A stretch of DNA of 64,000 nucleotides from a virus. Shown here in pieces: positions 2,712 to 37,464 of the stretch; the stretch's first letter is position 1; every line of letters starts with the position of its first letter. A program made the position numbers and the translations under genes. The DNA lies in the IMG/VR virus record IMGVR_UViG_3300025108_000016. One strand, written 5' to 3'. The notes under the pieces were generated by a model that did no database searches, was not told the DNA's origin, and saw only the letters and a list, made by a program, of their open reading frames with translations.

Positions 2712-5700
2712 ATGAGTTTTCAGTTAAATTCCGACAGAGAAACTATTAGAGCCATTGCTCCTACTCTAATTGGATCTCAAGAATTATCCATTAGGGCAGG
2801 TTCTGGTTCTGACGAAAAGGAAGTACTCAGAACTCTACTTGATCCAGGGACAGACTTGCCGCGAGTCGGTATCAATAGGACTGGAAATAGAATTGACAGA
2901 GTTGTAGTAAATTTAGGTGGTACTGGATACACTATTCAACCAACTGTTAATATTGCTCCACCACCAGCTGGTGGTACTCAAGCAGTAGGTTCTGCAATTA
3001 TTGATGAAGGTTTTGTTACTGCCGTTCTTATTGACAATCCTGGTAAAGGATACATCACTGCTCCTGCCGTAACAATTACTGGTGGTAATGGTACAGGTGC
3101 TCAAGTCGAGGCATTCCTTGATACTGTTGATTTTGAACTTGACATTAATGGTGCTATTAGAACATCTACGTCGATCATTTCAGACACGGCGAGAATTCTA
3201 AACCTAGATATTGATAACTTTATCACTCCAGATGCTAAGTTTAGAGCACCTGATCTGAAAACTTATATGAACAACACGGGCATCCCATGGACTGCCCAAA
3301 CTATTGTTCAGAAAGATGCTTATAGGTATAGGGGTCCAAACGTTTATCAAGCACTGAATGCTGGTGAAACGGGAACTGTACCACCTCTACATAAAGATGG
3401 TATTGAAACCAACAATGAAGTTCAATTCAAGCATATTGGTTTTAGAGTAACTGATCCTTCAGCGTTCCAGTATAATGAGACTGGAGAATCTGGAGAGTTC
3501 CCTCGTTCTATCACACCTCTACTTGGTGATAGATCTACTAAAATTGCAACCACAGAATACGTCCTCAACCTAGCAACGAATGACGTTGGTGGTCGTATTT
3601 ACGTTTCAGCACAGATTGGTTCTGACCTAAACGATGGTCGTTCTGCTGTTGCTCCTGTTAGAACAATCAAGAAGGCAGCACAACTTGCATGGGCAACTCC
3701 TGGTGTCAAGGAGACTCTTATTGTTTCTGGTGGTGATTACGTAGAAGATAATCCAATTTCACTACCACCTGATGCATCAGTTGTTGGTGATAACCTACGT
3801 TTGGTTATCATTCGTCCTGCTAACCCAAGGAAGCACATCTTCAAGTTCGGTGACAAGAACTATGTCATTGGTGTTACGTATCGCGACCAAGTTGACTCTA
3901 CTGGAGATGCAGTAGCAACTTGGGACTTTGCGATGGTCTTTGACGACAAGCAAAGAATCAATTATGACTATACAGCAAATGGAGATTTCGGAACCTCTTT
4001 CCCAATTGGTACACAAATCTTTGGACCAGAAAAATTCCGTGCAGACTTCCAAACAAACACAGGTCTTGCAAATCTTACATCAAATTTAGCAGTCAAAGGT
4101 ATCAACACTGGTGCTGAAGGTATTATTAATGAAGTAAACTTCGGATCTATCGTTGGACCACAAGCTTACATTTCTGGTAAACTTGATTTTTCTGTTACCA
4201 GTGGCGCATTTACAGCGGGTGAAACTTTCTTGTTTGGTGGTACAGGGTCTATCAAATGGACTCCAAATACATCATATACAATTGGACAACTAGTTTGGGC
4301 AACTGATAATGTTTATCAAGTAGCTGTTGCTGGTACTTCTGCTGCATCATCTCCTATTCATACTACGGGAACAGTTGCTACTGGTCCCGATACACTAGAA
4401 CTTACGTTCCTTAGAGATGCATACGAATTTGTATCTACTGATATTAGATCAATTAGAGCAGAAGGCGAAGTTGTTTTTGAAGATACCAACATTACTGATG
4501 CTCTACCTCTCGTAAGAATTGATTTCTCCAAGCAAGGCACTGCAGAAGTTTCAACTGGTGGTTTTCAAGACCCTAATGTTGTAGAAGATAATGGTGGTAT
4601 TATATTCTACACCAATGCTTTGGTTGGTAGGCAGAACACTCATGATTTTAAGGAAGGAGATGAAATCGTTATTGAGGGAATGCCTACCAGTTCTCCTGAT
4701 CTATCTTTCCTGAATGGAAAGCAAAGAATTTACAAAGTTCTGGAAGATGCTGATGGTCGTTCAAGACGTTTTGTAATCCCCAAGAAAACTACGATTACTA
4801 CAACTGATAATTTTGATCCAGGTCAATTTTCATCTGTAAAACGTTATGGTAAGTCAATTACCATCTCCTTGCTGAACTCTCCTAATAGATTCCCAATGGC
4901 AACACCTGTTGCCAGAAGATTTCAAGATGCTTGTTTGCAAATTAGAAACAACGTAGAATTTATTGCAGATGAAGTTGTTGGAAAAGTTAATGATCAATTT
5001 AAGAAAGAATATTATTCTGTCTACGAAATTGGTGGCACTCCAGATTCTACACTTACTCCAACTGATGTAGACTATGATCCTGCTACTGGCATCGCTACAT
5101 TTACAGTAACTAGTCATGGACTTAGTATTGGAGATGGCGTTAGAATTACGGATGATTCTATCACACAAACCTGTGCGATGGATGGAAATAGAACAGAACA
5201 TACTTCACCTAATTCTCATCATTATTCTAGCGGAAAGACTCTACCAATTCGTTCTTCAGGATTTACAACTGATCAGTTTGAACTTTTTGTTGGCATCTCT
5301 GGTCCTGACCAGCAATTTACACCTACTGATGTAACTTACGATCCTGCAACTGGAAATGTAAATCTAACAATTGGTGCTCATACATTATCTGTTGGAGAAG
5401 GTATTGTTATTGATGACAATTCATTGTCCTTTACGTGTGACATGGATGGCGATCAGTCAGTTAAGAGTTATCCACGTCCTGGTATCGATCCTTTTGCTAG
5501 TAGATCTATTCCTATTACGGAAGTTTCTGAAACTAGTATTACTATCAATGCAGGAATTTCTGGTCCCAATAAGTATTTCCAACCATCTGCTGTAAACTAT
5601 AACGCTGCGACTGGTGACATGACTGTCACAGTTGGTCAGCATGGACTCGGAGTTGGACGCAATGTTGTTCTTGAAGATAACTCATTCACATTTACTTGTG

Positions 5701-8700
5701 ATCAAAATGGATATGCAACCGAGCATACTTATCCACGTCCTGGATCAGATCCTTATGCAGGTCAGTCAATTGCTATTACTGATGTAGGAACCAATTCCCT
5801 AACAGTATCTGGAGCAACTTACACCGCTTCAAATGGTCAAGTTGATATTACTACTTCCGCACCACACGGAATGCAAGAAGGTGATTATATCTTGTTTGAA
5901 GATAACTCACTAACCTTTACGTGTAACCTGGATGGAAATGTAGTCAGTAAAAATTATCCACGTCCTGGTTATGACTATCCTAGTGGAAGATGGTTGCCAA
6001 TTAGCAACATTTCAGCAAGTGGTTTTAGAGTTAATATTGGATCTTCTAGTTATGTTGGAGTACATTCTTTTGTTTCCGCAACAAATAATGGTCTAAAGCA
6101 TCAAGATGGAACATTCACAATTAATGTTGGTAATGCAGGTACTGCGTCAGGATCAAATCATCAGTTTGTAAGTGCAACTGCTCAAGCAATTAAGCATGAA
6201 CCGCAATCTGTTCATACGTTTACTGGTTCAACATCGAATTCAGTAAAACATCTACCTCAATCTGCACATACGTTTGTAAGATCTGCGCCAAACTCTCTAT
6301 CTATTGGTGGTTCTACTCTCAAAATTTATCTCGGAACATCTACTTTCGTACACACGTATGTAAGTGGTGGTGTTGTAACTTACAATTCTCAAAATTATAA
6401 TATTACTAATTTTGTTTACGATAATATTTCTACTGGTGAAGCAACTATTACCCTAGCAAGTCCAGTTGCTGCTTTGTCTGAAGATGCTACCGTTAGAATT
6501 TCAGATTTAGTTGTAGAGTGTGTAGTAGATGGTGTTACTACCCAAAAAACTTATCCAAGTTTCAGCATCCCTGTAAACGATAACAAGTGTCGTAGAGATG
6601 TTGGACATTTCATTAGTGCAATTACTAGAGACCTTGAGTTTGGTAGCAACTATAATGTTATTGATGCAGCGAAAAAATATATTGATGGTACTAACACCCA
6701 GATTGATTTTGTCAATAACGAAATTATTCAGACAGTACGTGCTCTAGAATATGCAAGAGAACTGATCACTTTTGCTATGAGAAAGTGGCGTACTGGAACT
6801 GGAGCTCCTGGTCAAGCAATTTATGTTCCTCAGTATTCTCAACTTGATAGATATTTTGACCCAACAATTATTGATGATATTTCAACTCCTGCTTGTGCTA
6901 ACGTAGCATCTGCTATTGATACACTATCATATCTGTTTATTGATGTTCTTGCTAATAATACCAATGGAACTTATCTAGATGGTGCTTATTTAATTGCTAG
7001 AAATAGAGATTTGATTGCTGATGAAGCATACAAACTAGCAATGATCCAATACCCTTCTCTTGGATTAGGTAACATTGATGAGCGTAAGTGTCGTAGAGAC
7101 ATCAACCATATCATTAGTGCAATTATTAGAGATCTATCACTGGGAGGAAATTTTGGTATTGTCAATGCAGCAGAATTCTATTTCACAGGAAATGCTCTAA
7201 CTGGAATACCTGCATCTGAACTTGCTCCTACAAGGTTTGCATTCGAGAAAGCAAGAGATTTGTGTATCGCAGCAATGCGTAATTGGACAGATGCAGCTGG
7301 TGCTGCAATTGCCACACCTAATTCAGATATTCCTCAATTCACTGATAGTTCAATTCTTGTAGATCCTACTGGTGTACCTTTATGTGCAAACGTTGAAGCA
7401 TCTATCACAACTGCATTCCAACTACTAGATGACATCTTGAGTGGCACTACTTCTCCTGGTGCTACAGTAAGAGATACAGGAACTTTATTTGATACTTCAA
7501 CTATTGCTACTTTCCCTGATAGCATCATTTACGATAGTAAAGGTACAAAACTAACTCCACGTTCTGATTTTGCTGATAATCCTATCATTGAAGCATCTCC
7601 ATACACCCAGAACGCATCTGTTATCTCCTTCCTAGGTGGTGGCGGTGCTGAGGTTGATGGAGACAAGGTTAAGCAACCTAACTGCCCCTTCCCTGGTCTT
7701 GAGTTAGACGGATCAGCATCCTTCCCCAATCAGGGTAAGTCGATGGTTGCATCAGCCTTTACTATCGTTTCTTTCGGTGGTACAGGTTACAAAATTACTA
7801 ATGATGGTTATGTTCAGTTAGTTTCTGTATTCGTTATCTTCTGTGCCGATGGCGTCCTTGCTGAGTCTGGTGGTTATTGTTCAATTACAAACTCTGCTAC
7901 TAACTTTGGTATCTTTGCTCTCCGTGGCATTGGATTTAGAAAAGATGCATATGAATTTGATGTTGGTACAATTAGTAATGTATCTTCCACTCCTACAGGC
8001 AGAACAATCTTCACAGTTTCTGGTTTAGGAAGAGAACCACTTGAGCACTATATTGTTAAAGTTGATGGATTCTCGAACGTAGATCCAGATATTGAATACT
8101 TTATTGATACCGTAGAAGGAGTAACAGTTGGTCCTCCTTTCACTGCTCAACTAACACTTGAGTCTGGTTCTGGTGGTGGCGCGGCTTTGAAAAATGACGC
8201 TACTGATAATGCAGTTTCTGTTGGTACTTTGGTTGGTGAAACAGTAAGACTTCACAGACCATCTATTGTTAACTCGTCTTCACATACGTGGGAATTTGCA
8301 GGATCAGGAACCAACTATAATGCACTGCCAGAGAACGGCGGTACTAAAATTGAAGCATACGAACAAGTTTCTGAAAATTATGGTCGTGTTTATGTTTCTG
8401 GTACTGACGAACTAGGAGACTTTAAAGTTGGTACATTTGCGAGAATTGAAAACAGAACTGGTAATATTACCTTCACGGGTACTGTTACAATTTCGGAAGT
8501 TGAATTCTTGAAACTAAAAGGTGGCGACGTTGTTGTTACTGGTTTCGACGCATCCAATACACTTGGTGGTGCAAATACTACTAACTCTAAACTGCCAACA
8601 CAGAAAGCAGTTAAAGATTACATCACCAATAACCTCGGTCCATATCTAAACAAACCATATTCAACTAACCCTGTTCCTAGAGCACTGGTTGAACTTACTG

Positions 8701-11700
8701 ATTCTGGTAAGATCTCAGAAGATCAGATCCCACCTCTTCGTCCTTTCCAAGTATTTACAGTTGCAAACCAATCAGAAAGAGTTGCTATTGAAGGAGCACT
8801 TGCTGGTGACATCGCAATCCAACAGGATACTAACTCTTCATTCATTCTAAACAATGATAATGATAGTTTGTTTGTATCGTTCCCAATTGATTCCAGTCTT
8901 CAGTTCACCATTGGTGACATCTTTACTGGTAGTAATTCAGGCGGTAAAATTCAATCAACTGAATATAGAGAAGGTGTTGTTTATCAAATCAGTATTACTG
9001 ATAATGGTTCTGGTTACGTTACTCCTCCTGTTGTAACTATCTCTGGTGGTAATCCTCAAGCAGGTGCTGTTTCAGCATTTGCTACTTGTTCGATTGCAAA
9101 TGGTCAAGTTGTCCTAGTTGAGATTCAACTATTCAATAACTTTATTGGTGGTAAAGGATACACTACTCCTCCTACAGTTACGTTCTCTCCTCCAGCAGGT
9201 TCTGGAACGCAAGCAGCTGGTTCTGCTATAATTGAGTCCAGACTCTATGGTGATATCGTCAACAATATCAAGATAGAAGATACAGATGATATTGAATCTA
9301 GTGATGTTCCTTCCGAGACTATTGCTATTACCCGTGTTATTAATACTTCTGCGAGTGATAGTAATAACTGGGTATCTCTATCTTCCAATCAAATTGCTGC
9401 TAATGACATTACATCTGGTGTTATTTCTACAGCAAGACTAGCATTTACTTCAGATGCTGCAAACTCCTTCACATTCCTTAGAGGAGATCAGTCATATAAT
9501 CCTGTTATTCAATCACTTAAAGGTGCTGAGACTAGATATTTTGCTAAGATTACTTCACAAGCAAACAGCAGTTCTTCGCAATTAGTTTTTGCTACTAATG
9601 CTGATGTACTTCTTGGTCATGAAGTTGTAGCAAACATTAATGGTATTCAACCTAATACTAATATCTCTGGTATTCTTACTGCTGCTGGAACAACTACAGT
9701 TTCAATTGATAATCCACTAACAGCTACAATTCCAGTCAACACAGTTATTGAATTTGAGCGTGGTTCATCTCCACTAACATTTGAATCATCACTTACTCAA
9801 GGAGACTTTATCGAATCCGTTGTTATTGCAGCGGGTGGATCTGGATTTACTGATGGTCAATACTTTGATATAGAACTAGATGGTGGATCTGGTACAGGAC
9901 TCAAAGCAAATATTATTGTAAGTGGTGGTACAGTTTCAGATCTAACACTTACTTCTACTGGTGTTGGATTCCTAAATGACTTCACAGTCAGTTCTGCTCC
10001 AGGAGCTATTGGTTCTGGTACTGGTTTAGTTCTACTTGCAAAACTCAGTACAGTTAATAAGCAATTTGCAAACGTTGCTGTTGATATCTCTAGAGTTTCT
10101 GATCTAACTATTTCTGCTGACGAATACGGAACAATTGGTGTTGCTAGATTCTATAAAGATCAATTTAAAATTGGTCTTGCTGGTAATGGTTCTATTCAAC
10201 TTAAGACTGGAGCAGACTCTGGTCTTGATGCTGACCTTCTCGATGGTGTTCAAGGATCTTTCTACCTTAATGCAGGTAATCTAAACGCAGGTGTTCTGCC
10301 CGTTGATAGATTATCTGGTACTTATAATATTAATATTGCTAACCAGTCTGGTAGTACATTAAGACTCAAGTCTTCTACAAGTAACCCAGCATCGAATCCA
10401 AATCCTGATTCGTTTAACGTTGGTATTATTGCAGATACTAGAAATAATGCTGCTGATGGTCTAGCAGATGGTGGCACACGCCACGTTACATTGACTATCA
10501 GAAATGGTGGATCTGGTTTTGATGCAACATTTGGTGGTGTAAGACAACTTGCATTCACTGATAACGATAATATGTATCTTAGAGGTTCTGGTTCTACACT
10601 AGCAACCTTTAGTACATGGGCAAAGATCTGGTCTTCTCAGAATGATGGCGTCAACTCTGGACTTGATGCTGATAAACTTGATGGTCGTCAAGGAACTTTC
10701 TATCAGAATGCTATCAATACAAATGAAGGTATATTCAGTGATCTTAGAATGCCTTCTCACCAAACACAGAAGGACTTCCAAGATAGAGTTAGAATTCTTG
10801 ATTGGACAGGTCAACCAAGATATAAAATTCTTGTTAGAGATGAACTACTAACTGCATCCCCATTCTTAGTTGGTTTGCCAGTTAACTTGTATGATGCTCA
10901 AGGTCTTGCTCCTGGTCGTATTTCAATTACTGATATTGCCATCAACCAAGATGCCAATGATCCTTCTAATAATTTCACTCTAATTACAGGTACACTAACA
11001 ACAGGTAACTTTATTGGAGCGATTGCAATTGGTGATACCGCAATCAACTATCCTTTCCAAGATTTTAGTATTGCGGACCTAGACGCTAATGCAGATGGAC
11101 TACCCGATGGTACATTTGAAGTTGGAGGACTTGAAAGTACTGGTGGTAATGCCAGATTGAAACTTGGTAGAAACGATGGTATCTCTGCTTCAGATCCTTC
11201 CGTCTACTTCAGATCTTCTCTCCAACCATCAACTAACTACAGCTCCGCAATCATTGCTACTGGTGGTAATTCTACTGATGGTTCTGGTTCTCTGGAATTC
11301 AAAGTAGCAAATGTAAATCAGTTAACTATACTAGGTAACATTCTTTGGAATGAAGGTAACGTAGTATTCAACTCCTCTAATGTATTATCAACAACATCAC
11401 TGAAGTCTGCAGTATCAAGAGACACCAGTGGAAACTTTAGTGCTGGAACAATCACTGCTTCTCTAACTGGTGCTGCTTCGCTTAACGTTCTTAAGGCAGG
11501 CGATACAATGTCAGGTCTGCTCACCATCGGTGGAGTAGCGGCAGGAAGTCAAGCATTGAGCGTATCTGGCAGAGGAGATTTCTTAAGCAATATTACAGTT
11601 GCTGCTGACCTAACAGTCAACACTAACACATTGCACGTTGATGCTACAGATGATACAGTAAGCATTGGTACAACTACTTCTGATTCTGCAGTAAAACTTC

Positions 11701-12734
11701 TGATTGTAGAAGATGGAGATCAAGATGTTGTCCTGAGAATGTACTCATCCTACAACGTTGGTGGTGGTCCAAATCAACGCGATTCAATAATTCAATTGCT
11801 GGGTCAGGATGGCACTACTGATGAAGGTCTTGAACTGAAGTATGACAACTCTGTTGGTGATGTATACTTTAAACAACTATACAATTCGCTGACAACACAA
11901 GTTGCAATGCATTTCAGCACTGGTGCATTTACTGACGCTCTAACGATTACTGGTAACGGCAATCTGGGTGTACAGATGACTGCCAACGATGCCTATGAGT
12001 TGGATGTAAATGGATCAGCAAGAGTTAAGACAGCAGTTCAAGTTGGTCGTGCAGATAGTAATGCTGGTGCTCCTGTAATTTACGCAGGTGCAACTGGTGC
12101 ATCTTCTGGAACTCCTGGTAACTATCTAAGTAACTTCCGTGTTGGTAATCAACTACTACAATCAGATACTTTTGAAATCACACCTAGTGATGGTGCCGTT
12201 GCAGGAGGTTTAACTTGGAAGAGTACACCAGCACTTGCAATCCAAGGTTCTGAGAACAGAGTTGCAATCAACACTCTCCTATTTGGTGGTACTGATACTA
12301 CAGTAGATCCACAGGTCCAGAGAGAATATCAACTGAACATCCAAGGCGATATCAACATCAATGGTCTGGTCTTCCAGAACAACGCTGAGTTCGTTACTTC
12401 CAGATGGACAGAATCTGCAAATGAACTGGATATCTACAGAGAGTCTAAGGTATGGATTAACCCAGATTCCTCTGTTAATGGATTTACTGGTGACCCAGAT
12501 TATGATCTACAAATTGGTGGTGGTGGTAATGATGGACACCTTGGACTAAATGGTGTCATGTATATTAGAGACACCCCCCAATGGATTGACACCACAGGCA
12601 TCATCAAAAACTCTGCTAACACATTGGCAGAAGATGTAACTATTCCTGCAAATGCTAACGCAATGTCCATTGGTCCGATTACAATTCAACCAGGCGTTGT
12701 AGTTGATGTCGTAGGTAACTGGGTAATTATGTGA
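2712..12734 (+). CDS. Giant tail fibre / virion structural protein (3340 aa)
   Basis: Contains GxGY-T beta repeats, KCRRD helical repeats, YDPATG/YPRPG domains, two GLDAD(L/K)LDG fibre motifs and RV(G/A)IN..L(D/N)I(N/Q)G fibre repeats; lies upstream of gp13. Confidence 0.8.
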   Translation: MSFQLNSDRETIRAIAPTLIGSQELSIRAGSGSDEKEVLRTLLDPGTDLPRVGINRTGNRIDRVVVNLGGTGYTIQPTVNIAPPPAGGTQAVGSAIIDEGFVTAVLIDNPGKGYITAPAVTITGGNGTGAQVEAFLDTVDFELDINGAIRTSTSIISDTARILNLDIDNFITPDAKFRAPDLKTYMNNTGIPWTAQTIVQKDAYRYRGPNVYQALNAGETGTVPPLHKDGIETNNEVQFKHIGFRVTDPSAFQYNETGESGEFPRSITPLLGDRSTKIATTEYVLNLATNDVGGRIYVSAQIGSDLNDGRSAVAPVRTIKKAAQLAWATPGVKETLIVSGGDYVEDNPISLPPDASVVGDNLRLVIIRPANPRKHIFKFGDKNYVIGVTYRDQVDSTGDAVATWDFAMVFDDKQRINYDYTANGDFGTSFPIGTQIFGPEKFRADFQTNTGLANLTSNLAVKGINTGAEGIINEVNFGSIVGPQAYISGKLDFSVTSGAFTAGETFLFGGTGSIKWTPNTSYTIGQLVWATDNVYQVAVAGTSAASSPIHTTGTVATGPDTLELTFLRDAYEFVSTDIRSIRAEGEVVFEDTNITDALPLVRIDFSKQGTAEVSTGGFQDPNVVEDNGGIIFYTNALVGRQNTHDFKEGDEIVIEGMPTSSPDLSFLNGKQRIYKVLEDADGRSRRFVIPKKTTITTTDNFDPGQFSSVKRYGKSITISLLNSPNRFPMATPVARRFQDACLQIRNNVEFIADEVVGKVNDQFKKEYYSVYEIGGTPDSTLTPTDVDYDPATGIATFTVTSHGLSIGDGVRITDDSITQTCAMDGNRTEHTSPNSHHYSSGKTLPIRSSGFTTDQFELFVGISGPDQQFTPTDVTYDPATGNVNLTIGAHTLSVGEGIVIDDNSLSFTCDMDGDQSVKSYPRPGIDPFASRSIPITEVSETSITINAGISGPNKYFQPSAVNYNAATGDMTVTVGQHGLGVGRNVVLEDNSFTFTCDQNGYATEHTYPRPGSDPYAGQSIAITDVGTNSLTVSGATYTASNGQVDITTSAPHGMQEGDYILFEDNSLTFTCNLDGNVVSKNYPRPGYDYPSGRWLPISNISASGFRVNIGSSSYVGVHSFVSATNNGLKHQDGTFTINVGNAGTASGSNHQFVSATAQAIKHEPQSVHTFTGSTSNSVKHLPQSAHTFVRSAPNSLSIGGSTLKIYLGTSTFVHTYVSGGVVTYNSQNYNITNFVYDNISTGEATITLASPVAALSEDATVRISDLVVECVVDGVTTQKTYPSFSIPVNDNKCRRDVGHFISAITRDLEFGSNYNVIDAAKKYIDGTNTQIDFVNNEIIQTVRALEYARELITFAMRKWRTGTGAPGQAIYVPQYSQLDRYFDPTIIDDISTPACANVASAIDTLSYLFIDVLANNTNGTYLDGAYLIARNRDLIADEAYKLAMIQYPSLGLGNIDERKCRRDINHIISAIIRDLSLGGNFGIVNAAEFYFTGNALTGIPASELAPTRFAFEKARDLCIAAMRNWTDAAGAAIATPNSDIPQFTDSSILVDPTGVPLCANVEASITTAFQLLDDILSGTTSPGATVRDTGTLFDTSTIATFPDSIIYDSKGTKLTPRSDFADNPIIEASPYTQNASVISFLGGGGAEVDGDKVKQPNCPFPGLELDGSASFPNQGKSMVASAFTIVSFGGTGYKITNDGYVQLVSVFVIFCADGVLAESGGYCSITNSATNFGIFALRGIGFRKDAYEFDVGTISNVSSTPTGRTIFTVSGLGREPLEHYIVKVDGFSNVDPDIEYFIDTVEGVTVGPPFTAQLTLESGSGGGAALKNDATDNAVSVGTLVGETVRLHRPSIVNSSSHTWEFAGSGTNYNALPENGGTKIEAYEQVSENYGRVYVSGTDELGDFKVGTFARIENRTGNITFTGTVTISEVEFLKLKGGDVVVTGFDASNTLGGANTTNSKLPTQKAVKDYITNNLGPYLNKPYSTNPVPRALVELTDSGKISEDQIPPLRPFQVFTVANQSERVAIEGALAGDIAIQQDTNSSFILNNDNDSLFVSFPIDSSLQFTIGDIFTGSNSGGKIQSTEYREGVVYQISITDNGSGYVTPPVVTISGGNPQAGAVSAFATCSIANGQVVLVEIQLFNNFIGGKGYTTPPTVTFSPPAGSGTQAAGSAIIESRLYGDIVNNIKIEDTDDIESSDVPSETIAITRVINTSASDSNNWVSLSSNQIAANDITSGVISTARLAFTSDAANSFTFLRGDQSYNPVIQSLKGAETRYFAKITSQANSSSSQLVFATNADVLLGHEVVANINGIQPNTNISGILTAAGTTTVSIDNPLTATIPVNTVIEFERGSSPLTFESSLTQGDFIESVVIAAGGSGFTDGQYFDIELDGGSGTGLKANIIVSGGTVSDLTLTSTGVGFLNDFTVSSAPGAIGSGTGLVLLAKLSTVNKQFANVAVDISRVSDLTISADEYGTIGVARFYKDQFKIGLAGNGSIQLKTGADSGLDADLLDGVQGSFYLNAGNLNAGVLPVDRLSGTYNINIANQSGSTLRLKSSTSNPASNPNPDSFNVGIIADTRNNAADGLADGGTRHVTLTIRNGGSGFDATFGGVRQLAFTDNDNMYLRGSGSTLATFSTWAKIWSSQNDGVNSGLDADKLDGRQGTFYQNAINTNEGIFSDLRMPSHQTQKDFQDRVRILDWTGQPRYKILVRDELLTASPFLVGLPVNLYDAQGLAPGRISITDIAINQDANDPSNNFTLITGTLTTGNFIGAIAIGDTAINYPFQDFSIADLDANADGLPDGTFEVGGLESTGGNARLKLGRNDGISASDPSVYFRSSLQPSTNYSSAIIATGGNSTDGSGSLEFKVANVNQLTILGNILWNEGNVVFNSSNVLSTTSLKSAVSRDTSGNFSAGTITASLTGAASLNVLKAGDTMSGLLTIGGVAAGSQALSVSGRGDFLSNITVAADLTVNTNTLHVDATDDTVSIGTTTSDSAVKLLIVEDGDQDVVLRMYSSYNVGGGPNQRDSIIQLLGQDGTTDEGLELKYDNSVGDVYFKQLYNSLTTQVAMHFSTGAFTDALTITGNGNLGVQMTANDAYELDVNGSARVKTAVQVGRADSNAGAPVIYAGATGASSGTPGNYLSNFRVGNQLLQSDTFEITPSDGAVAGGLTWKSTPALAIQGSENRVAINTLLFGGTDTTVDPQVQREYQLNIQGDININGLVFQNNAEFVTSRWTESANELDIYRESKVWINPDSSVNGFTGDPDYDLQIGGGGNDGHLGLNGVMYIRDTPQWIDTTGIIKNSANTLAEDVTIPANANAMSIGPITIQPGVVVDVVGNWVIM

Positions 12735-12740
12735 TAAATA
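12734..12740 (+). promoter_or_regulatory. Late promoter (ATAAATA)
   Basis: Motif overlaps the fibre stop codon, 34 nt upstream of the Gly-rich gene. Confidence 0.65.
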
Positions 12741-12773
12741 GATAAAGCAAAGAACTTATAAGCAGATTGAAAT

Positions 12774-13832
12774 ATGTCTAGTCTAAACGTAGGAACTGTA
12801 ACTCTGTCTAACGGACTGACACTTCCTTCATATACATCAAGTCCAGATAACCGACCATCACATAGTGCTGGCAGGACTATCTATGATTCGACTTCGGATA
12901 CTATTCAAATATCCGATGGATCACAATGGATTAGTGCGGGTTCTGCAGGTAGTGGTTTGATTACTGCTACTGGTGGTGAGATTACATTCTCTGGTGGATA
13001 TAAAGTTCACACATGGTACAATGTTGGAGAGTATAATTTTAATGTAACGGGAGCTGCTGGTGGTGCTACTGCCGAAGTTCTTGTGGCAGCAGGTGGTGGT
13101 TGTGGCGGAACTATTGGTGGAGGAGGCGGCGGCGGTGGCGTTTGCTACCACGGATCTTATCCAATCACAGTTGGTTCTTATGATGTAAAAGTGGGAGCAG
13201 GTGGACAGACACCTCTAGCTGGACATCCTGCCAACAAAGGAACTAGTGGATCTCCTTCTAAGTTTGGAACGCATACTGCATTTGGTGGTGGTTCTGCTGG
13301 ATCATGGGGTCCTAATGCTAGAGAAACTGGAGAACCAGGTGGTTCTGGTGGCGGCGCATCTGGTCCTGGTCCTAGACAACCACAAAGAGGAGAAGCAACT
13401 CAAGGTACTGCTCCTGGTGGTGGTGTTACTCACGGAAATCCTGGTTATAGAAACGGCAATAATGTTTCTGGAACACACTCTGGTACTCATACTGGCGGTG
13501 GCGGCGGTGGTGCTAACCCCAACAACACAGTTAATGGAAGAGTTGGAGGTGATGGAATCACTTATATGGGACTAACTGTTGGTGGTGGAGGTGGCGGAGG
13601 AAGTCACGAAAACTATGGTAATGCTCCAATCACAACTCCTGCTGCTCCTGGTGGCGGTGGTCGTGGTGGATCTAGATCATCGCAATATGCAGGTGGCGGT
13701 GGACAAGGTTGGGGTGAACCAGGACAAGTTAACACTGGTGGTGGCGGCGGAGGCGGCTGGTATAATGGTGGTGGTAATGGTCAAGGAGCTGCTGGTGGTC
13801 CTGGCATCGTTCGTGTTCGTCATACAATCTAA
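12774..13832 (+). CDS. Glycine-rich fibre tip / adhesin-like protein
   Basis: N-terminal RP..G..IYD..W motif, LVAAGGGxGG poly-Gly tracts and C-terminal GGPGIVRVR; directly follows the fibre gene. Confidence 0.7.
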   Translation: MSSLNVGTVTLSNGLTLPSYTSSPDNRPSHSAGRTIYDSTSDTIQISDGSQWISAGSAGSGLITATGGEITFSGGYKVHTWYNVGEYNFNVTGAAGGATAEVLVAAGGGCGGTIGGGGGGGGVCYHGSYPITVGSYDVKVGAGGQTPLAGHPANKGTSGSPSKFGTHTAFGGGSAGSWGPNARETGEPGGSGGGASGPGPRQPQRGEATQGTAPGGGVTHGNPGYRNGNNVSGTHSGTHTGGGGGGANPNNTVNGRVGGDGITYMGLTVGGGGGGGSHENYGNAPITTPAAPGGGGRGGSRSSQYAGGGGQGWGEPGQVNTGGGGGGGWYNGGGNGQGAAGGPGIVRVRHTI

Positions 13833-13835
13833 TAT

Positions 13836-14333
13836 ATGTTTTACAATGTAGAGGAAAATTTCCTCAATAGTGAAGAGTTTGAACAACTAACTAAACAAAC
13901 AATAAACAATCCTTATTTCCCGTTGTATTTGAAGCACCGAGTAGCGTCGGCGTCTTCAGACGACGGGATTTATTTTACTCACAATTTTTTCTTTGCTGGT
14001 GAGGTGTGCAGTGATTACTACGAGCATCTTTCTCCTATTATAGAAAAAATTAAAACTGAAAAATTGTTAAGAGTTCAATTAAATTTATTTCCCAAAACTA
14101 CTGAGATCGTGCGCCACGACTGGCATACAGATATGCTCTGGGATCATAGAGGTTGTATAGTCTACCTAAATACTAATGATGGGTCAACGTTATTAAAAGA
14201 AGATGATGAGAATGCTGTAGGCATTCGTTCTATATCAAACAGAGCATTATTTTTCAATCCAGCAAAACCTCATTGTAGTACGACATGCACTGATTCTGAA
14301 TTCAGAAGCAACATTATTTTTAACTATGAGTGA
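13836..14333 (+). CDS. 2OG-Fe(II) oxygenase-like protein
   Basis: HxD (WHTD), IVYLNTNDG, distal His (KPHCST) and terminal R..I.FNY. Confidence 0.7.
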   Translation: MFYNVEENFLNSEEFEQLTKQTINNPYFPLYLKHRVASASSDDGIYFTHNFFFAGEVCSDYYEHLSPIIEKIKTEKLLRVQLNLFPKTTEIVRHDWHTDMLWDHRGCIVYLNTNDGSTLLKEDDENAVGIRSISNRALFFNPAKPHCSTTCTDSEFRSNIIFNYE

Positions 14334-14997
14334 ATTATATAATGTGTTTTCTATACCAGTATGGAAAACAAAAATAACTAAAAATGATTATGATAAAGAT
14401 CTCATTCTTAATGAGATGTTGTACAATTTTAATGTAGATCCCAAAAGAAATACTTGGGATAAGGTGATGCCAACTACTATGAAGAGTAACTGGCATCACT
14501 CCAATAATGATGAGGCAGACAAAAAATTTAAATCTATCAGTTACGAAGACTCTGGATTGACTTCTGTTATAGACTCGAAGGTTAGAGAATTTGTTTCTCA
14601 CCTTGGATTAAATTCCAGCATCAATTATTTTTTTCAAATAACTAATTACACAGTATCTACAGAAGGTTACTTCCTCACCAGTCATGGTCATGGTTGCGAC
14701 TCTTTTAGTTCTGTGTTATTTGTACAATTTGATAAATTTAATCACCCTTCTACGTGCTTTAACAATCCATTTAGTTCATCAGATCAAACTAGGTGGTTAC
14801 AGAAAGATCTATATAATTCGTTTGATAATAAGAATCCATTTTTTAGTTACATGCAAGATACATGGTCAATTGATACCGAAGAAGATGATTATATGATTTT
14901 TCCAGGACACGTCAAACACGAAGTTCCTACCGTAGGAAAATCAAACAAAGAACGAGTAACTATTTCATGCAATATTAAGGTGTACAAAAATGTCTAA
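14326..14997 (+). CDS. Putative 2OG-Fe(II) oxygenase (TIGR02466-like)
   Basis: HxH (HGH), FSSVLFV, IFPGHVKHEV and RVTISCNI motifs. Confidence 0.75.
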   Translation: MSELYNVFSIPVWKTKITKNDYDKDLILNEMLYNFNVDPKRNTWDKVMPTTMKSNWHHSNNDEADKKFKSISYEDSGLTSVIDSKVREFVSHLGLNSSINYFFQITNYTVSTEGYFLTSHGHGCDSFSSVLFVQFDKFNHPSTCFNNPFSSSDQTRWLQKDLYNSFDNKNPFFSYMQDTWSIDTEEDDYMIFPGHVKHEVPTVGKSNKERVTISCNIKVYKNV

Positions 14998-16546
14998 TGA
15001 AATTAATTCAATTACTATAGTTGGTGGCGGTAGTGCTGGATGGATGTCTGCCGCTACAATGATTAGGTTTTTCCCTAACAGAAAAATTACTATCATAGAA
15101 AGTCCAGACTACCCAATCGTAGGAGTTGGTGAAAGTACACTAGGACATATCAATCAGTGGTTAGCTCTGCTAGGAATTCGTGAAGATGATTTTATGAAGG
15201 AGTGTGATGCTTCTTATAAACTAAGTATTAAATTTACAGATTTTTATGCGAAGGGAGATGGTGGTTATCATTACCCATTTGGACCGCCAATGCTAGATGG
15301 AACTGACCTTGGGTTTAATGATTGGCAAGTATTAAAACATTTTTCTCCTGGTATTCCTGTACAAGATTTTGCTAGATGTTATAATCCTATAACCCTTTTA
15401 GCAGAGCAAAATAAAATTGATAAAAATGAGAGTGGTCACTTAGATAATTTTAATTTTGCAAAAGATGCTGCTTATCATTTTGATGCTGTTAAATTTGGGC
15501 AATGGTTGAAAAATAACTATTGCCTTCCTAGAGGTGTAGAACTTATTTCATCTTCTGTAAAGAATGCTATCGTAGGTGCAGATGGAGTAGAATCATTAAT
15601 TCTTGAAGATGGTACAGAGCATTCTGCTGACATGTATCTTGATTGCACAGGATTTAAAAGTATGCTCTTAGCAGGTGCTTTAAATGAGGAGTTTGTTTCT
15701 TATAGAGATGTTGTTCCCAACAACAGAGCATGGGCAACTAGATTACCTTATACAGATAAAGAAAAACAATTAGAACCATTTACTAATGGAACTGCTTTAT
15801 CATCTGGTTGGGTGTGGAATATTCCTTTGTGGAGTAGAATTGGTACAGGTTATGTGTATAGTGATGATCACATCACACCAGAAGATGCGTTAAAAGAATT
15901 TCAAGAACACATAGGAAGAGATGATCTTGAGTTTAGAGATATCAAAATGCGTATTGGAATCCATAAAAATGTATGGAGTAAAAATGTAGTTGGTATTGGT
16001 TTAGCAGGAGGTTTTATTGAACCTTTAGAAAGCAATGGATTATTTACTGTACATGAGTTTCTACTCAAACTAACAAAATCTATTTCTAAACCTTTTGTAA
16101 ACCAATTAGACAGAGACATTTTTAACATGTCTGTGCGTGATATATTTGATACATTTGCTACTTTTGTGGGTCTTCACTATAAACTTAGTTCTAGAAACGA
16201 TAGTCCTTATTGGAGAGATATTACAGAGAGATCTAATCTACGTGAAGAAATTTTAAGAATTCCTCAGATGCAAACAGATTTTAGACATCTAGCAGTAGCA
16301 AAAATGATTGATGATAAATTTTGTAATGGAGGGCAACCTTATATTGCTACAGGTATGCATTACCCAATTGCAGATGAATCAACAATTTGTGCATGGACAT
16401 ATCAAAATGATGTGGACTATAAAAAAGTAGCACAAGAAGCTGCGTTACGATTCTCCAGAAGAAAACAATGGTGGCAACATATTACAGATATTGCTCCGAC
16501 ATTGTATGAACACCTAGCAGATAAATATGGATATGAGGTTAATTAA
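14990..16546 (+). CDS. Flavin-dependent (tryptophan-halogenase family) halogenase
   Basis: GGGSAG FAD motif, VGVGEST, catalytic Lys context ASYKLSIKF, WxWxIP (WVWNIP) and FIEPLESNG. Confidence 0.9.
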   Translation: MSNEINSITIVGGGSAGWMSAATMIRFFPNRKITIIESPDYPIVGVGESTLGHINQWLALLGIREDDFMKECDASYKLSIKFTDFYAKGDGGYHYPFGPPMLDGTDLGFNDWQVLKHFSPGIPVQDFARCYNPITLLAEQNKIDKNESGHLDNFNFAKDAAYHFDAVKFGQWLKNNYCLPRGVELISSSVKNAIVGADGVESLILEDGTEHSADMYLDCTGFKSMLLAGALNEEFVSYRDVVPNNRAWATRLPYTDKEKQLEPFTNGTALSSGWVWNIPLWSRIGTGYVYSDDHITPEDALKEFQEHIGRDDLEFRDIKMRIGIHKNVWSKNVVGIGLAGGFIEPLESNGLFTVHEFLLKLTKSISKPFVNQLDRDIFNMSVRDIFDTFATFVGLHYKLSSRNDSPYWRDITERSNLREEILRIPQMQTDFRHLAVAKMIDDKFCNGGQPYIATGMHYPIADESTICAWTYQNDVDYKKVAQEAALRFSRRKQWWQHITDIAPTLYEHLADKYGYEVN

Positions 16547-16548
16547 TT

Positions 16549-17145
16549 ATGGCATATGAAGCGATGTGGTATCAATCACATTTACCAGATGAGTTAATTG
16601 ATCCACTAGTATTAACTTTAGAAAGATCTGATAATTTTATTGACTCAGAAACTAAAGGTGGATTAGCATTAGCAGTTAGAGATAGTTCAAATCAATGGAT
16701 TCCTGATACCCATTGGATTGGTGGATTGTTGTGGCATTATGTTACTCTAGCAAACGATAGCAATTTTGGTTACGACATTAAAGAATTTGATCATAATTCA
16801 ATACAATATACTAGATACAAAACTGGTCAATATTATGGATGGCATAAAGACGATGGAGTAGGAAGTATAGTTTCTCCTGATCCTAAGCATCCAGTTGATT
16901 CTTTTATTGATAGAAATACTAAACAGATTAGAAAATTGTCTGTGGTTGTCCAGTTATCTTCACATGAAGATTATACTGGTGGAGAATTTCAAATGATGGA
17001 AGATCAAAACAGAACTTTTTTTGCACCAAAAACAAAAGGAACTATTATTATTTTTGATAGTAGACTTCCCCATAGAGCTAAAAAAGTATTGTCTGGCGAA
17101 AGACGATCTTTAGTTGCTTGGGTAACTGGACCTCAGTGGAGATGA
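16549..17145 (+). CDS. 2OG-Fe(II) oxygenase (prolyl-4-hydroxylase/PKHD-like)
   Basis: YGWHKD, RKLSVVVQLS..DYTGGEF and FDSRLPH..V..GERRSLVAW. Confidence 0.85.
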   Translation: MAYEAMWYQSHLPDELIDPLVLTLERSDNFIDSETKGGLALAVRDSSNQWIPDTHWIGGLLWHYVTLANDSNFGYDIKEFDHNSIQYTRYKTGQYYGWHKDDGVGSIVSPDPKHPVDSFIDRNTKQIRKLSVVVQLSSHEDYTGGEFQMMEDQNRTFFAPKTKGTIIIFDSRLPHRAKKVLSGERRSLVAWVTGPQWR

Positions 17146-17726
17146 GTATGAATTGGAATGATTGGTCTGTTATTGTAGTAAAAAATATTATAAATCCTGT
17201 ATTTTTATTTGAACCTATTCCTTGGGAACGAGGACAATATACTTACGAGTCCAGAGGAAATGTTATCCATATCCCTGACGAAGGGCAAGTTAGTGGTAGT
17301 TTGTCTAGATATAATCACCCAAAATTTAGACAATTGCATTTTGATGTAAAATCTAAAATAGAAAATGTAATTAATGATCCTCTGTATCCAACATATTTTT
17401 ACGACAGATTTTATTTTAAAAAACAATTACTAGAAAAACATGTAGATAGACCTGCATGCGAGGTGAGCATCTCTATTAATTGCTCGCATAATTTAGATTA
17501 TGATTGGCCAATATGGTTTACAACTCCAGATGGAGATGATATCCCATTGATTACAAATCCTGGTGATGGGGTAATTTACAAAGGATGCGAACGACCTCAT
17601 TGGAGAGAACCAATGGAAGGAAATTCAAAATCATACTATCATCAAATGTTCATGCACTACGTGCGTAGAGATGGTCCTCATCTAGAACATGCACATGATA
17701 GATGTAATACTATAAATAGAGTATAG
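17142..17726 (+). CDS. 2OG-Fe(II) oxygenase-like protein
   Basis: HVDRPACEVS and PGDGVIYKGCERPHWR motifs; ATG overlaps the upstream TGA (ATGA). Confidence 0.7.
   Translation: MSMNWNDWSVIVVKNIINPVFLFEPIPWERGQYTYESRGNVIHIPDEGQVSGSLSRYNHPKFRQLHFDVKSKIENVINDPLYPTYFYDRFYFKKQLLEKHVDRPACEVSISINCSHNLDYDWPIWFTTPDGDDIPLITNPGDGVIYKGCERPHWREPMEGNSKSYYHQMFMHYVRRDGPHLEHAHDRCNTINRV
17711..17718 (+). promoter_or_regulatory. Late promoter (TATAAATA)
   Basis: Perfect T4 late consensus upstream of the second Gly-rich gene. Confidence 0.75.
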
Positions 17727-17745
17727 CAAAAAGTCTTGACAGAAC

Positions 17746-18960
17746 ATGTCCGAAATTAATGTTGGTGATTTAAACGTATCTACGGAATTTAACTTACCCC
17801 TTTATAATAGTTCTAACAGACCCGTGAATCCTGCCACAGGATTCATGATATTTAATAGTACCGAAAATAAATTACAGGTATGGACTGGATCTCAATGGAA
17901 GAGTTTTGGTCAACAGAATTATGATATTAGTGCAACTGGTAGCGTAGTTACTTCTGATTTAACTGGTGACTATAGTGGTTACAGAGTTTATAGATTCACT
18001 GGAGATGGAACTCTAACAGTCAACCAAAGTAATCAAGATGGTGGTGTAGAATTCCTACTAATCGCTGGAGGAGGCGGTGGTGGTGGCGTCATCGGTGGTG
18101 GTGGTGGTGCTGGTGGTGTAATTTACAGAAGAGAACTTTATCTAGCACCAGGTACTTATAATATTTCTATCGGTGGTGGTGGAGCAGGAGGAACTGGGTG
18201 GAATAGTTCACAGCAAGAAGGTCGCGCAGGAACTCCATCTACATTTACTGATAATGCTGGATTTAGTTATGAAGCAGTAGGTGGTGGTGGAGGTTGTGCT
18301 CATGGCGGAAGTTCTCCAAATAGAATTGCTGGTCAAGGTGGTTCTGGAGGTGGATCTGCTAGCGTCTCTAGAAGAGGTGGAAACGCAATTGGTAAAAACT
18401 TTGGACCTCAAGCAACAGATAAAGCACATAATATTAGGGATGTATACCTTAGTAATAACGAGGCCATGGCTGATGGTGACGCACTTGCTAGAGGTGCTCA
18501 AAGTTGGGAGGCAATTGAAACATCAACTAATGAATGCCAAGGAGTTCAAGGAAACGCTGGCGGCAATCGTGGTGATGGAGACACAGGAGCAGGTGGTGGT
18601 GGATTTGGTACTAATGGCGGCACTGGTGGAGCTCCCAGAGATACTGGGGGTGAAGGTGGTCACGGAGGATACTTTGATATCACTGGATCAATGGTTGGTT
18701 ATGCTGGCGGTGGTGGTGGCGGTGTCCGAGGCACAGGTCGCCGTCGTGGCACAAAAGCAGGTGACTATGGTGGGGGAGATGGTGGACGAGCAACAGGTGC
18801 TCCAGTCAATTTCGGTAGTCCCACACCTAATAGTGCTGAAGCTGGCGCAACTAATCGCGGTGGCGGTGGCGGTGGTGGCGGTTATAACGCCCCACGTAGC
18901 GGTGCTGTAGGTGCTCCAGGTGGATCTGGAGTTTGTATTATTCGATATAGGAAATCATAA
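17746..18960 (+). CDS. Glycine-rich fibre tip / adhesin-like protein (paralogue of 12774-13832)
   Basis: Same architecture: MS.(I/L)NVG, RP..G..IFN..W, LLIAGGGGGG, C-terminal GGSGVCIIRY. Confidence 0.7.
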   Translation: MSEINVGDLNVSTEFNLPLYNSSNRPVNPATGFMIFNSTENKLQVWTGSQWKSFGQQNYDISATGSVVTSDLTGDYSGYRVYRFTGDGTLTVNQSNQDGGVEFLLIAGGGGGGGVIGGGGGAGGVIYRRELYLAPGTYNISIGGGGAGGTGWNSSQQEGRAGTPSTFTDNAGFSYEAVGGGGGCAHGGSSPNRIAGQGGSGGGSASVSRRGGNAIGKNFGPQATDKAHNIRDVYLSNNEAMADGDALARGAQSWEAIETSTNECQGVQGNAGGNRGDGDTGAGGGGFGTNGGTGGAPRDTGGEGGHGGYFDITGSMVGYAGGGGGGVRGTGRRRGTKAGDYGGGDGGRATGAPVNFGSPTPNSAEAGATNRGGGGGGGGYNAPRSGAVGAPGGSGVCIIRYRKS

Positions 18961-18961
18961 A

Positions 18962-19285
18962 ATGGCATTAGATTTAACGTACATGGCTTCATTATCTGAA
19001 GCACAAAGAGAAGTTTTTGTAACACTCATCAATGATATTGAAAGTGAGGAACCTTTTGGTCCTGGTGTAACTTCTGATTGGGTTGACGAGATGAGAGAAA
19101 ATCTCAGACTATCTGCACCACGTCAAGAAGATATTGACAAATGCGAAACTTTAAAAAAAATTGCTGCAAGCGATTTAACTTACTCTATCAATAGACTTGC
19201 TGATAGTCAGGGATTGCCTGTTATTAGTATTACAGGTAATTCTTTGGAATTGGATAAAATTTTCTGTTCTGAAAAAGAAAACTAA
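18962..19285 (+). CDS. Hypothetical protein
   Basis: ATG 1 nt after the upstream stop (MALDLTY…), 107 aa. Confidence 0.55.
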   Translation: MALDLTYMASLSEAQREVFVTLINDIESEEPFGPGVTSDWVDEMRENLRLSAPRQEDIDKCETLKKIAASDLTYSINRLADSQGLPVISITGNSLELDKIFCSEKEN

Positions 19286-19316
19286 ATAATAAAGTACATC
19301 ATTTTATATTACTACA

Positions 19317-19502
19317 ATGGACACTGAACAACTGAGAAAGAATTTTGATGAGCAAATTGCTAGTACAGATAAGCAAATTTCTGAACTAGAAGCAAACCTT
19401 GCCAAAGCAAAAGAATACAAATTGAAACTAATTGGTGGTATTGAAACTCTAGATTTGCTCAACCCCAAAGAGGAAACTCCTTCCGAAGAAGAATCTGAGT
19501 AA
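19317..19502 (+). CDS. Small coiled-coil hypothetical protein
   Basis: 61 aa; preceded by CTAAATA (19282-19288) and followed by a terminator. Confidence 0.65.
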   Translation: MDTEQLRKNFDEQIASTDKQISELEANLAKAKEYKLKLIGGIETLDLLNPKEETPSEEESE

Positions 19503-19505
19503 CAC

Positions 19506-19541
19506 AAATCCCTGCTTCCTAAATAGAAGTAGGGATTTTTT
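19506..19541 (+). terminator. Intrinsic terminator with late promoter CTAAATA as its loop
   Basis: AAATCCCTGCTTC-CTAAATA-GAAGTAGGGATTT then a T tract. Confidence 0.7.
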
Positions 19542-36846: not shown

Positions 36847-36916
36847 TAGATACAGTTATCTTTTGAACCCTTAACAGAGTCATCCTACTGAGGTTCTGAG
36901 GATTTGTCAAGCCCCC

Positions 36917-36945
36917 TTGACAGATTGTTTGCAATCACCTATAAT
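36917..36945 (+). promoter_or_regulatory. Sigma70-type promoter for gp55
   Basis: Perfect TTGACA-N17-TATAAT. Confidence 0.85.
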
Positions 36946-36969
36946 AGATGCAAGGAAACAAGTAAAAGC

Positions 36970-37464
36970 ATGACCAGAACTAAGAACAAAGAATACTACG
37001 TCAACAACAAAGAGTTTCTGGCTGCTATCACTGAGTACCGTAGACTGGTACATAAAGCACTAGAGGATGGTAAAGACCGACCGCGTGTTACCAACTACAT
37101 TGGAGAGTGCTTTCTTAAGATCGCTACACACCTCTCGTACAAACCAAATTTTGTTAACTACATGTTTCGTGAGGACATGATCTGCGATGGTATCGAGAAC
37201 TGCCTACAGTACATCGATAACTTCGACCCAGAGAAGAGTTCTAATCCTTTTGCATACTTCACCCAGATTATCTACTACGCCTTCCTGAGACGCATACAGA
37301 AGGAGAAGAAGCAACTGGAGATTAAGCAGCGTGTTCTTGAGAAGTCAGGTTATCAGGAAGTCATGTATACCGAACGCTATGAGGGTGATATGGCAGGTAT
37401 GAACGCATCGTATTCTGACATGGGTAGCATCAAAGAAAATATTGAAACAAGAATGAATCGATGA
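36970..37464 (+). CDS. gp55: Late-transcription sigma factor gp55
   Basis: YVNNKEF, YIGECFLKIA and NPFAYFTQI..AFLRRI; start placed downstream of the promoter. Confidence 0.95.
   Translation: MTRTKNKEYYVNNKEFLAAITEYRRLVHKALEDGKDRPRVTNYIGECFLKIATHLSYKPNFVNYMFREDMICDGIENCLQYIDNFDPEKSSNPFAYFTQIIYYAFLRRIQKEKKQLEIKQRVLEKSGYQEVMYTERYEGDMAGMNASYSDMGSIKENIETRMNR

Follow-up and report, generated by a model that had tools for sequence, protein, structure and literature searches.

Why should a phage of cyanobacteria place a halogenase and four dioxygenases between two genes for glycine-rich (Gly-rich) fibre-type proteins, and what would these enzymes act on? The question is raised by a cassette of seven genes in IMG/VR virus record IMGVR_UViG_3300025108_000016, of which we analysed a stretch of 64,000 nucleotides (the window). 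Viral halogenases of the VirX1 type and cyanophage oxygenases that depend on 2-oxoglutarate (2OG) have gone without a known natural substrate for about 20 years and are usually filed as host-reprogramming genes. The window holds the smallest and cleanest fibre-linked array, in which late-type promoters accompany five enzymes flanked by two genes for candidate substrates. Linkage of such arrays to Gly-rich fibre genes is recurrent and widespread, yet not obligatory, and we put the proposal that the enzymes modify virion fibre proteins somewhat below an even chance. The genes of the cassette, with lengths in amino acids (aa), are:

12774..13832, + strand: Gly-rich fibre-type protein 1 (352 aa; PF21722 Gly_rich_2; conserved module at the N-terminus)
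13836..14333, + strand: dioxygenase 1, 2OG/Fe(II) type (165 aa; matches phrog_274)
14326..14997, + strand: dioxygenase 2, 2OG/Fe(II) type (223 aa; PF13759 2OG-FeII_Oxy_5)
14990..16546, + strand: flavin-dependent halogenase of the VirX1 family (518 aa; PF04820)
16549..17145, + strand: dioxygenase 3, 2OG/Fe(II) type (198 aa; PF13640, prolyl-4-hydroxylase-like)
17142..17726, + strand: dioxygenase 4, 2OG/Fe(II) type (194 aa; HxD...H alignment and AlphaFold2 (AF2) model)
17746..18960, + strand: Gly-rich fibre-type protein 2 (404 aa; PF21722; N-terminal half paralogous to gene 1)

The phage itself is recognisable from the T4-like cyanomyovirus backbone in the window (gp13, gp14 and gp15 neck proteins, terminase, sheath, tube, portal and gp55). 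Its closest public records are the Synechococcus phages Sf-CH11 and Sf-CH1a, which originate from sponge cells, were isolated on Synechococcus WH8102 and share 80.5% DNA identity and gene order over 12700-19300, all seven cassette genes standing in identical order as SfCH11_91 to SfCH11_97, the enzymes being SfCH11_92-96. Near-identical copies are also present in marine metagenome contigs.

All seven genes are read from the + strand, with junctions in order of +3, -8, -8, +2, -4 and +19 nt. A preliminary description of this locus, made by reading the letters alone, had stated that the five enzyme genes overlap or abut one another and the upstream Gly-rich gene (the first five of these junctions), that a second Gly-rich paralogue follows, that the enzyme genes are more AT-rich than their flanks, that no terminator separates them, that the halogenase retains four motifs, and that four 2OG-Fe(II) oxygenases are present; each of these statements was borne out. 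The compositional difference is real and modest: GC is 0.338 in the enzyme genes versus 0.390 in the whole window, and all five fall within the 11 lowest of 47 genes. The GC of 0.47-0.50 in the Gly-rich genes is due to their GGN codons. The start of dioxygenase 4 is most likely the ATG at 17142, which gives an ATGA overlap and the same 194 aa as in Sf-CH11; the TTG at 17118 is probably not used.

The halogenase matches PF04820 in Pfam at 1.5e-101, VirX1 of cyanophage Syn10 being the best relative with a solved structure (PDB 6QGM; E 1.8e-108 over residues 4-434). GGGSAG (residues 12-17; GxGxxG), ASYK, GWVWNIP (WxWxIP) and FIEPLESNG (FxEPLESxG) were all found. ASYKLSIKF aligns with ATYKNSIRF of VirX1, bringing together the catalytic Lys (K79 of PrnA/VirX1), and FIEPLESNG aligns with FIEPLESTG, bringing together the Glu. 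Identity to the Syn9 and Syn10 homologues is about 39% by tblastn. The sequence can be matched to VirX1 and to Trp halogenases up to about residues 410-434 of 518, and the C-terminal ~85 residues are unaligned.

The four dioxygenases were recognised by different routes. Dioxygenases 2 and 3 were identified by Pfam, the former with an H-x-H-type variant of the iron triad, as in PF13759, and the latter with an H-K-D...H triad and the PKHD-type hydroxylase 3dkq as its top PDB sequence match. For dioxygenases 1 and 4 Pfam was not sufficient, and they were settled by profile alignment and by folding, respectively; PDB sequence searches with dioxygenases 1, 2 and 4 returned no match. Aligned to the PF13640-type family (hhalign E 5e-5), dioxygenase 1 places H97, D99, H146 and R157, each at least 90% conserved, on the catalytic positions. 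In dioxygenase 4, H100, D102, R103, H153 and R155 are invariant in an alignment of 25 diverse sequences, and the AF2 model has a mean predicted confidence (pLDDT) of 90.3. The top Foldseek matches of this model are the P. putida prolyl 4-hydroxylase (P4H; 4iw3/4j25), AsqJ and FtmOx1, with ABH8 also among them (E 6e-8 to 4e-6); this P4H, an EF-Tu prolyl hydroxylase, is the best structural match, and the small-molecule enzymes AsqJ, FtmOx1 and OkaE are neighbours as well. Dioxygenases 1-3 have a conserved Arg after the distal His, and dioxygenase 4 carries the invariant R103 and R155. A double-stranded beta-helix (DSBH) fold is predicted for all four, by model for dioxygenase 4, by Pfam for 2 and 3 and by profile alignment alone for 1. 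The four families are mutually distant, having no members in common at E 1e-10, and neither a JmjC nor a cupin family was found among the cassette proteins even at E up to 5. Judged by residue conservation, the enzymes of the window look catalytically intact.

Two misleading public labels can be corrected to dioxygenases. 'Ferrochelatase' (phrog_2954/3531) is wrong for dioxygenase 4, which has the HxD...H triad and a DSBH model, and 'DNA endonuclease V' (phrog_274) is wrong for dioxygenase 1, whose catalytic residues align with the PF13640-type family. The mislabels are seen at L004, L005, L006 and L011 as well as in the window, and they recur in the S-RIM44, Syn9, P-TIM40, S-SM1 and Sf-CH11 records. 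We also considered dioxygenase 1 as the counterpart of the small open reading frame (ORF) typified by Syn9 gp40 and rejected this, the families being unrelated (hhalign probability 0.1%); no gp40-type gene was found in the window, whose lineage is without it. The gp40-type ORF (L005:6487-6981 and homologues, 15 loci) comes after the last Gly-rich gene, and since it stands behind Gly-rich genes in both Syn9-type and convergent architectures, it is part of the fibre module.

The transcription signals of the locus are:

12733..12740, + strand: late-promoter-like motif GATAAATA (7/8 of the T4 late consensus; 33 nt 5' of the start of Gly-rich gene 1)
16520..16527, + strand: late-promoter-like motif GATAAATA (7/8; inside the 3' end of the halogenase gene; 21 nt 5' of dioxygenase 3)
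17711..17718, + strand: late promoter motif TATAAATA (perfect T4-type match; 27 nt 5' of Gly-rich gene 2)
19506..19538, + strand: strong intrinsic-terminator-like hairpin (13 pairs and a T run; before gp13)

The preliminary description had placed a late promoter at 12734. A motif does lie there, but it is not single: three sites occur in the cassette, and all three ATAAATA sites are kept in five relatives (L001, L012, L016, L019 and L021) with halogenase identity down to 68%. Around the 17711-17718 site the flanks have diverged in those relatives and the motif has been retained; the conservation of the 16520-16527 motif is ambiguous because the same letters encode a conserved (D/N)-K-Y. Across the window, the ATAAATA heptamer is not above chance in total count, and 16 of its 17 copies are on the coding strand; among these + strand copies, 11 of 16 end 8-60 nt 5' of a gene start, against 5.5% expected (P=5e-11). 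Syn9-type phages likewise have an ATAAATA-type motif 5' of their Gly-rich genes and of the small gene just ahead of the halogenases. The window also encodes the late sigma factor gp55 (36904-37464), and gp55-dependent promoters of the ATAAATA type would drive Gly-rich gene 1, dioxygenase 3 and Gly-rich gene 2, with predicted late starts at about 12747, 16534 and 17725.

The cassette contains no strong terminator; the 19506-19538 hairpin is the first canonical terminator and the likely end of the transcription unit. Weak terminator-like hairpins between 12000 and 20000 number 7 versus 4.0 +/- 2.3 in shuffles, that is, not above expectation. Early in the coding sequence of Gly-rich gene 2, within its N-terminal module, lies a perfect 11-bp stem with a 3-nt loop (17823-17847); it has no T run after it and is therefore no terminator. 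From the predicted promoters, late transcription of the cassette together with the fibre genes is probable. Given these promoters, the overlapping or abutting genes and a terminator only at 19506-19538, the enzymes would be made late, alongside the fibre proteins.

The flanking proteins are the obvious candidate substrates. Both match PF21722 in Pfam and share an N-terminal module (37% identity across the first 177 residues); tryptic sites are few in them. The AF2 model of Gly-rich protein 2 (pLDDT 78) predicts a beta-sandwich followed by Gly-rich stretches, and its top Foldseek matches, all weak (E 1e-3 to 4e-3, TM 0.3-0.5), are the Bxb1 tail tip, the Pam3 fibre gp24 and the Gly-rich domain of ALK/LTK. 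By tblastn, matches of this protein are limited to its own clade and to hits of the N-terminal module. A reading of both proteins as TNF-like/glycine-rich fibre-tip or adhesin-type, putatively receptor-binding, is reasonable on these sequence and model data. A 683-aa virion protein elsewhere in the window (100-2151) contains two internal copies of the module that opens both Gly-rich proteins, one matched by phrog_1325 at residues 154-203 and the other by related families at about 380-425.

Does the association with Gly-rich fibre genes extend beyond this one phage? We scanned nine isolate genomes with hidden Markov models (HMMs) for PF21722 and the halogenase array, and surveyed 80 viral contigs with halogenase relatives, annotated via profiles made from the window proteins. 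In six of the nine isolates (Sf-CH11, Sf-FP1, S-RIM44, Syn9, P-TIM40 and S-WAM1) the halogenase array has PF21722 genes directly upstream of it. Such genes are not next to the halogenase in S-B64 and P-SSM2, and in S-MbCM6 the HMM scan found no PF21722 gene. S-SM1 has a 2OG array without a halogenase, behind a fibre-like gene that shares the N-terminal module. Among informative loci on the halogenase tree, a Gly-rich gene lies within 1.5 kb of the array in 47 and does not in 15, with at least nine changes of state. The linked loci come from some ten sub-clades of the halogenase and show three orientations, namely upstream on the same strand, sandwich and convergent. The sandwich layout is found only in the clade of the window, where it persists to ~50% identity of Gly-rich protein 2, and within this fixed frame 2OG genes have been gained and lost among relatives.

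How, then, might the cassette work? The enzymes would act in the cytoplasm on freshly made virion fibre proteins, the candidate substrates being the two Gly-rich receptor-binding proteins and possibly a fibre of 3340 aa encoded directly upstream. The dioxygenases would hydroxylate side chains, for example of Pro, Lys, Asn or Asp; the halogenase, fed with reduced flavin by the host, would halogenate exposed Trp or Tyr; and either modification would shift the chemistry or stability of the fibre tip. In this specific form, a virion-maturation system covalently halogenating Trp/Tyr and hydroxylating Pro/Lys/Asn/Asp on receptor-binding tips, the proposal is tentative and on balance unlikely. A protein substrate is favoured because of the late promoters and the position in the virion module, the Gly-rich adjacency that survives rearrangement, the P4H-type enzymes and the lack of a scaffold or precursor gene. 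By analogy, the enzyme types would suit protein substrates: dioxygenase 3 belongs to the P4H family, dioxygenase 4 is near the EF-Tu prolyl hydroxylase and VirX1 has an open active site. The preliminary description had read the locus as a late tailoring cassette for receptor-binding proteins; packing, late-type promoters, the virion module and fibre-type flanks agree with it, and it is in the step to the fibre proteins as putative substrates that this reading goes further than the data.

Several observations weigh against a fibre substrate. The halogenases of S-B64, S-MbCM6 and P-SSM2 lie in replication or auxiliary metabolic gene (AMG) regions, away from fibre genes, and the halogenase homologue of HTVC008M likewise sits apart from fibre genes. 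In every architecture the array occupies one slot, between the fibre module and gp13-15, so that Gly-rich adjacency could reflect a module boundary and not function. Sf-CH11 has about 13-15 2OG genes scattered genome-wide, only four of them in the cassette, and unrelated phages, as well as some cyanophage-like contigs, have Gly_rich_2 fibres with no such enzymes nearby. Genes for carbamoyltransferases and methyltransferases, a more usual feature of small-molecule or glycan tailoring, are found in related arrays, and the structural matches of dioxygenase 4 include the small-molecule enzymes named above. No flavin-dependent halogenase is known to act on a folded protein.

The strongest alternative, of which the preliminary description had already named the small-molecule form, is that the enzymes tailor a small molecule or free peptide, halogenating and hydroxylating in succession a host-derived aromatic or amino-acid-derived metabolite to give a toxin, signal or metabolic sink, with the proximity of the fibre genes incidental. 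Taken by itself this is a minority possibility, and it is about equally likely as the fibre reading, because paralogues are scattered, Gly-rich fibres occur without enzymes, relatives have transferases and halogenation of a folded protein lacks a precedent. For exactly such an array, the Syn9 neighbourhood with its two halogenases and ten dioxygenases in tandem, termed unprecedented, synthesis of halogenated and hydroxylated secondary metabolites has been proposed (Iyer, Abhiman, de Souza and Aravind 2010, PMC2938197), and antibiotic production is another published reading of such cyanophage enzymes (review). VirX1 accepts many small aromatic compounds for halogenation in vitro (PMC8407142). 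The carbamoyl- and methyltransferase genes recall natural-product clusters, and both the halogenase paralogues of S-MbCM6 and P-SSM2 in AMG regions and the closeness of AsqJ, FtmOx1 and OkaE to dioxygenase 4 fit a small substrate. Against it, neither the cassette nor its relatives were found to have a precursor peptide, a transporter, a carrier protein or an enzyme that forms a scaffold, nor was there any nonribosomal peptide synthetase, polyketide synthase, ATP-grasp or precursor-like gene across 12.7-19.5 kb by ORF list and Pfam. The late-type promoters, the embedding of the cassette in the virion module and its recurrence beside Gly-rich fibre genes across rearrangements also speak against it, as does the statement, from a review, that cyanomyovirus hosts known so far have no tryptophan halogenase of their own.

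Rather unlikely is that the enzymes have no substrate in common, the slot between fibre and neck genes merely accumulating independent 2OG enzymes and a halogenase and the Gly-rich link being inherited synteny; their roles might then be 2-oxoglutarate drawdown or succinate supply, signalling of nitrogen status or repair of nucleic acids. For cyanophage 2OG genes, Sullivan et al. 2010 suggested 2OG and NtcA (nitrogen) modulation and cited a DNA-repair role, and such genes are many and scattered, with 24 in S-SCSM1 in addition to those of Sf-CH11. The shared fibre/neck boundary and the turnover of 2OG genes inside a fixed frame also speak for this explanation. However, the cargo of the slot is nearly all dioxygenases and halogenases with a few transferases, unlike a general hot spot; the hyperplastic region described for cyanomyoviruses is elsewhere, between g15 and g18 (review); and four distant dioxygenase families have been kept together with conserved catalytic residues and overlapping frames.

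Modification of another macromolecule, either host translation factors or ribosomal proteins (compare EF-Tu, a target of bacterial P4H, and the JmjC ribosomal oxygenases) or envelope glycans, is improbable, for although the EF-Tu prolyl hydroxylase is the top structural match of dioxygenase 4, a MINA/NO66-clade JmjC protein is present in the Syn9 array and the carbamoyltransferases of related arrays could act on sugars, the expected late expression would leave little time for useful host reprogramming, no JmjC member was detected in the cassette and inspection of the enzyme translations revealed no secretion signals or membrane segments.

The genes around the cassette complete the picture of the locus:

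2712..12734, + strand: giant structural/fibre protein (3340 aa; immediately upstream of the cassette; stop codon in overlap with the first late-promoter-like motif)
18962..19285, + strand: acidic helical ORF (107 aa; after Gly-rich gene 2; no PHROG match)
19317..19502, + strand: coiled-coil ORF (61 aa; phrog_580)

The syntenic counterpart of the giant ORF, SfCH11_90, is annotated 'structural protein', and a giant ORF likewise precedes the cassette in relatives. An ORF of ~105 aa is syntenic to 18962-19285 in all sandwich-type relatives, and syntenic ORFs of 61-63 aa sit before gp13 in relatives of the window phage; in the window and related phages, the 107-aa and 61-aa ORFs always separate gp13 from the array or from Gly-rich gene 2. 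It is possible that they are fibre chaperones. We rejected them as precursors of ribosomally synthesised and post-translationally modified peptides (RiPP-like), given their acidic helical and coiled-coil character without an aromatic-rich core. Further observations come from related arrays (L067:13838-15676, L029:5490-7172 and L054:3297-3743): NodU/CmcH-type carbamoyltransferase or methyltransferase genes occur in them, and at the array border a NUDIX gene adjoins gp15. S-B64 (L092; record positions 150921-151843 and 135211-138430) has its halogenase in the replication module and a single Gly-rich fibre gene, with 2OG genes 1.7-2.4 kb downstream of the latter and a four-gene 2OG array ~5 kb upstream of it.

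Were modification of fibre proteins confirmed, it would stand as the first case of a folded protein halogenated by an enzyme and of a halogenated virion, would supply a natural substrate for VirX1-type halogenases, and would mean that a virus group among the most abundant in the ocean uses a new kind of receptor-binding chemistry; if not, the focus would move to infection-specific halogenated metabolites. In the literature that we searched, mostly outside subscription journals, we found no prior claim of hydroxylation or halogenation of a phage virion, which is not proof of absence; a paper from 2022 states that the functions of such enzymes in viruses had not yet been investigated. Since the cultured relatives Sf-CH11 and Sf-CH1a have the same seven-gene layout, the question of virion modification is directly testable.

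Several known systems share parts of this arrangement. In bacterial operons, beta-hydroxylase and PhyH-type dioxygenases are paired with collagen-like or tail-collar proteins, which were proposed as their substrates (Iyer et al. 2010, PMC2938197), and the window is similar in that dioxygenase genes stand beside Gly-rich, phage-fibre-like, non-enzymatic proteins. Those operons differ in having sulfotransferases and 3'-phosphoadenosine-5'-phosphosulfate (PAPS) synthetases and no halogenase, and the substrate idea is itself a proposal. The Gly-rich proteins resemble fibres of the Pam3 gp24 and S16 gp38 type in their glycine-rich domain and in the position of their genes at the fibre gene module's distal end. 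Pam3 gp24 is a receptor-binding fibre with a TNF-like and a glycine-rich domain (PMC9608196); the N-terminal module of the window proteins is unlike its helical shaft, no Tfa-like chaperone was recognised beside the window genes, and the Pam3 fibre gene, unlike those of the window, has no adjoining tailoring enzymes (PMC9608196). With VirX1, a trimer with a large and unusually accessible active site whose natural substrate is not known (PMC8407142), the window halogenase has in common the flavin adenine dinucleotide (FAD) motif, WxWxIP, the catalytic Lys and the Glu of FxEPLES.

Closest of all are the arrays of Syn9 and Syn10. As there, a T4-like cyanomyovirus has a Trp-type halogenase beside mutually distant Fe/2OG dioxygenases, tightly packed on one strand, after Gly-rich fibre genes and before neck genes. 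The window has one halogenase and four dioxygenases against two and ten in Syn9, and the JmjC MINA/NO66-clade member of the Syn9 array (gp49), which is not obligatory for the class, was not detected in it. The window array is thus almost certainly a compact member of the published Syn9 gp41-gp54 type, so that the array itself is not new; in the clade of the window, unlike in Syn9 and Syn10, a second Gly-rich gene stands 3' of the enzymes and closes the sandwich.

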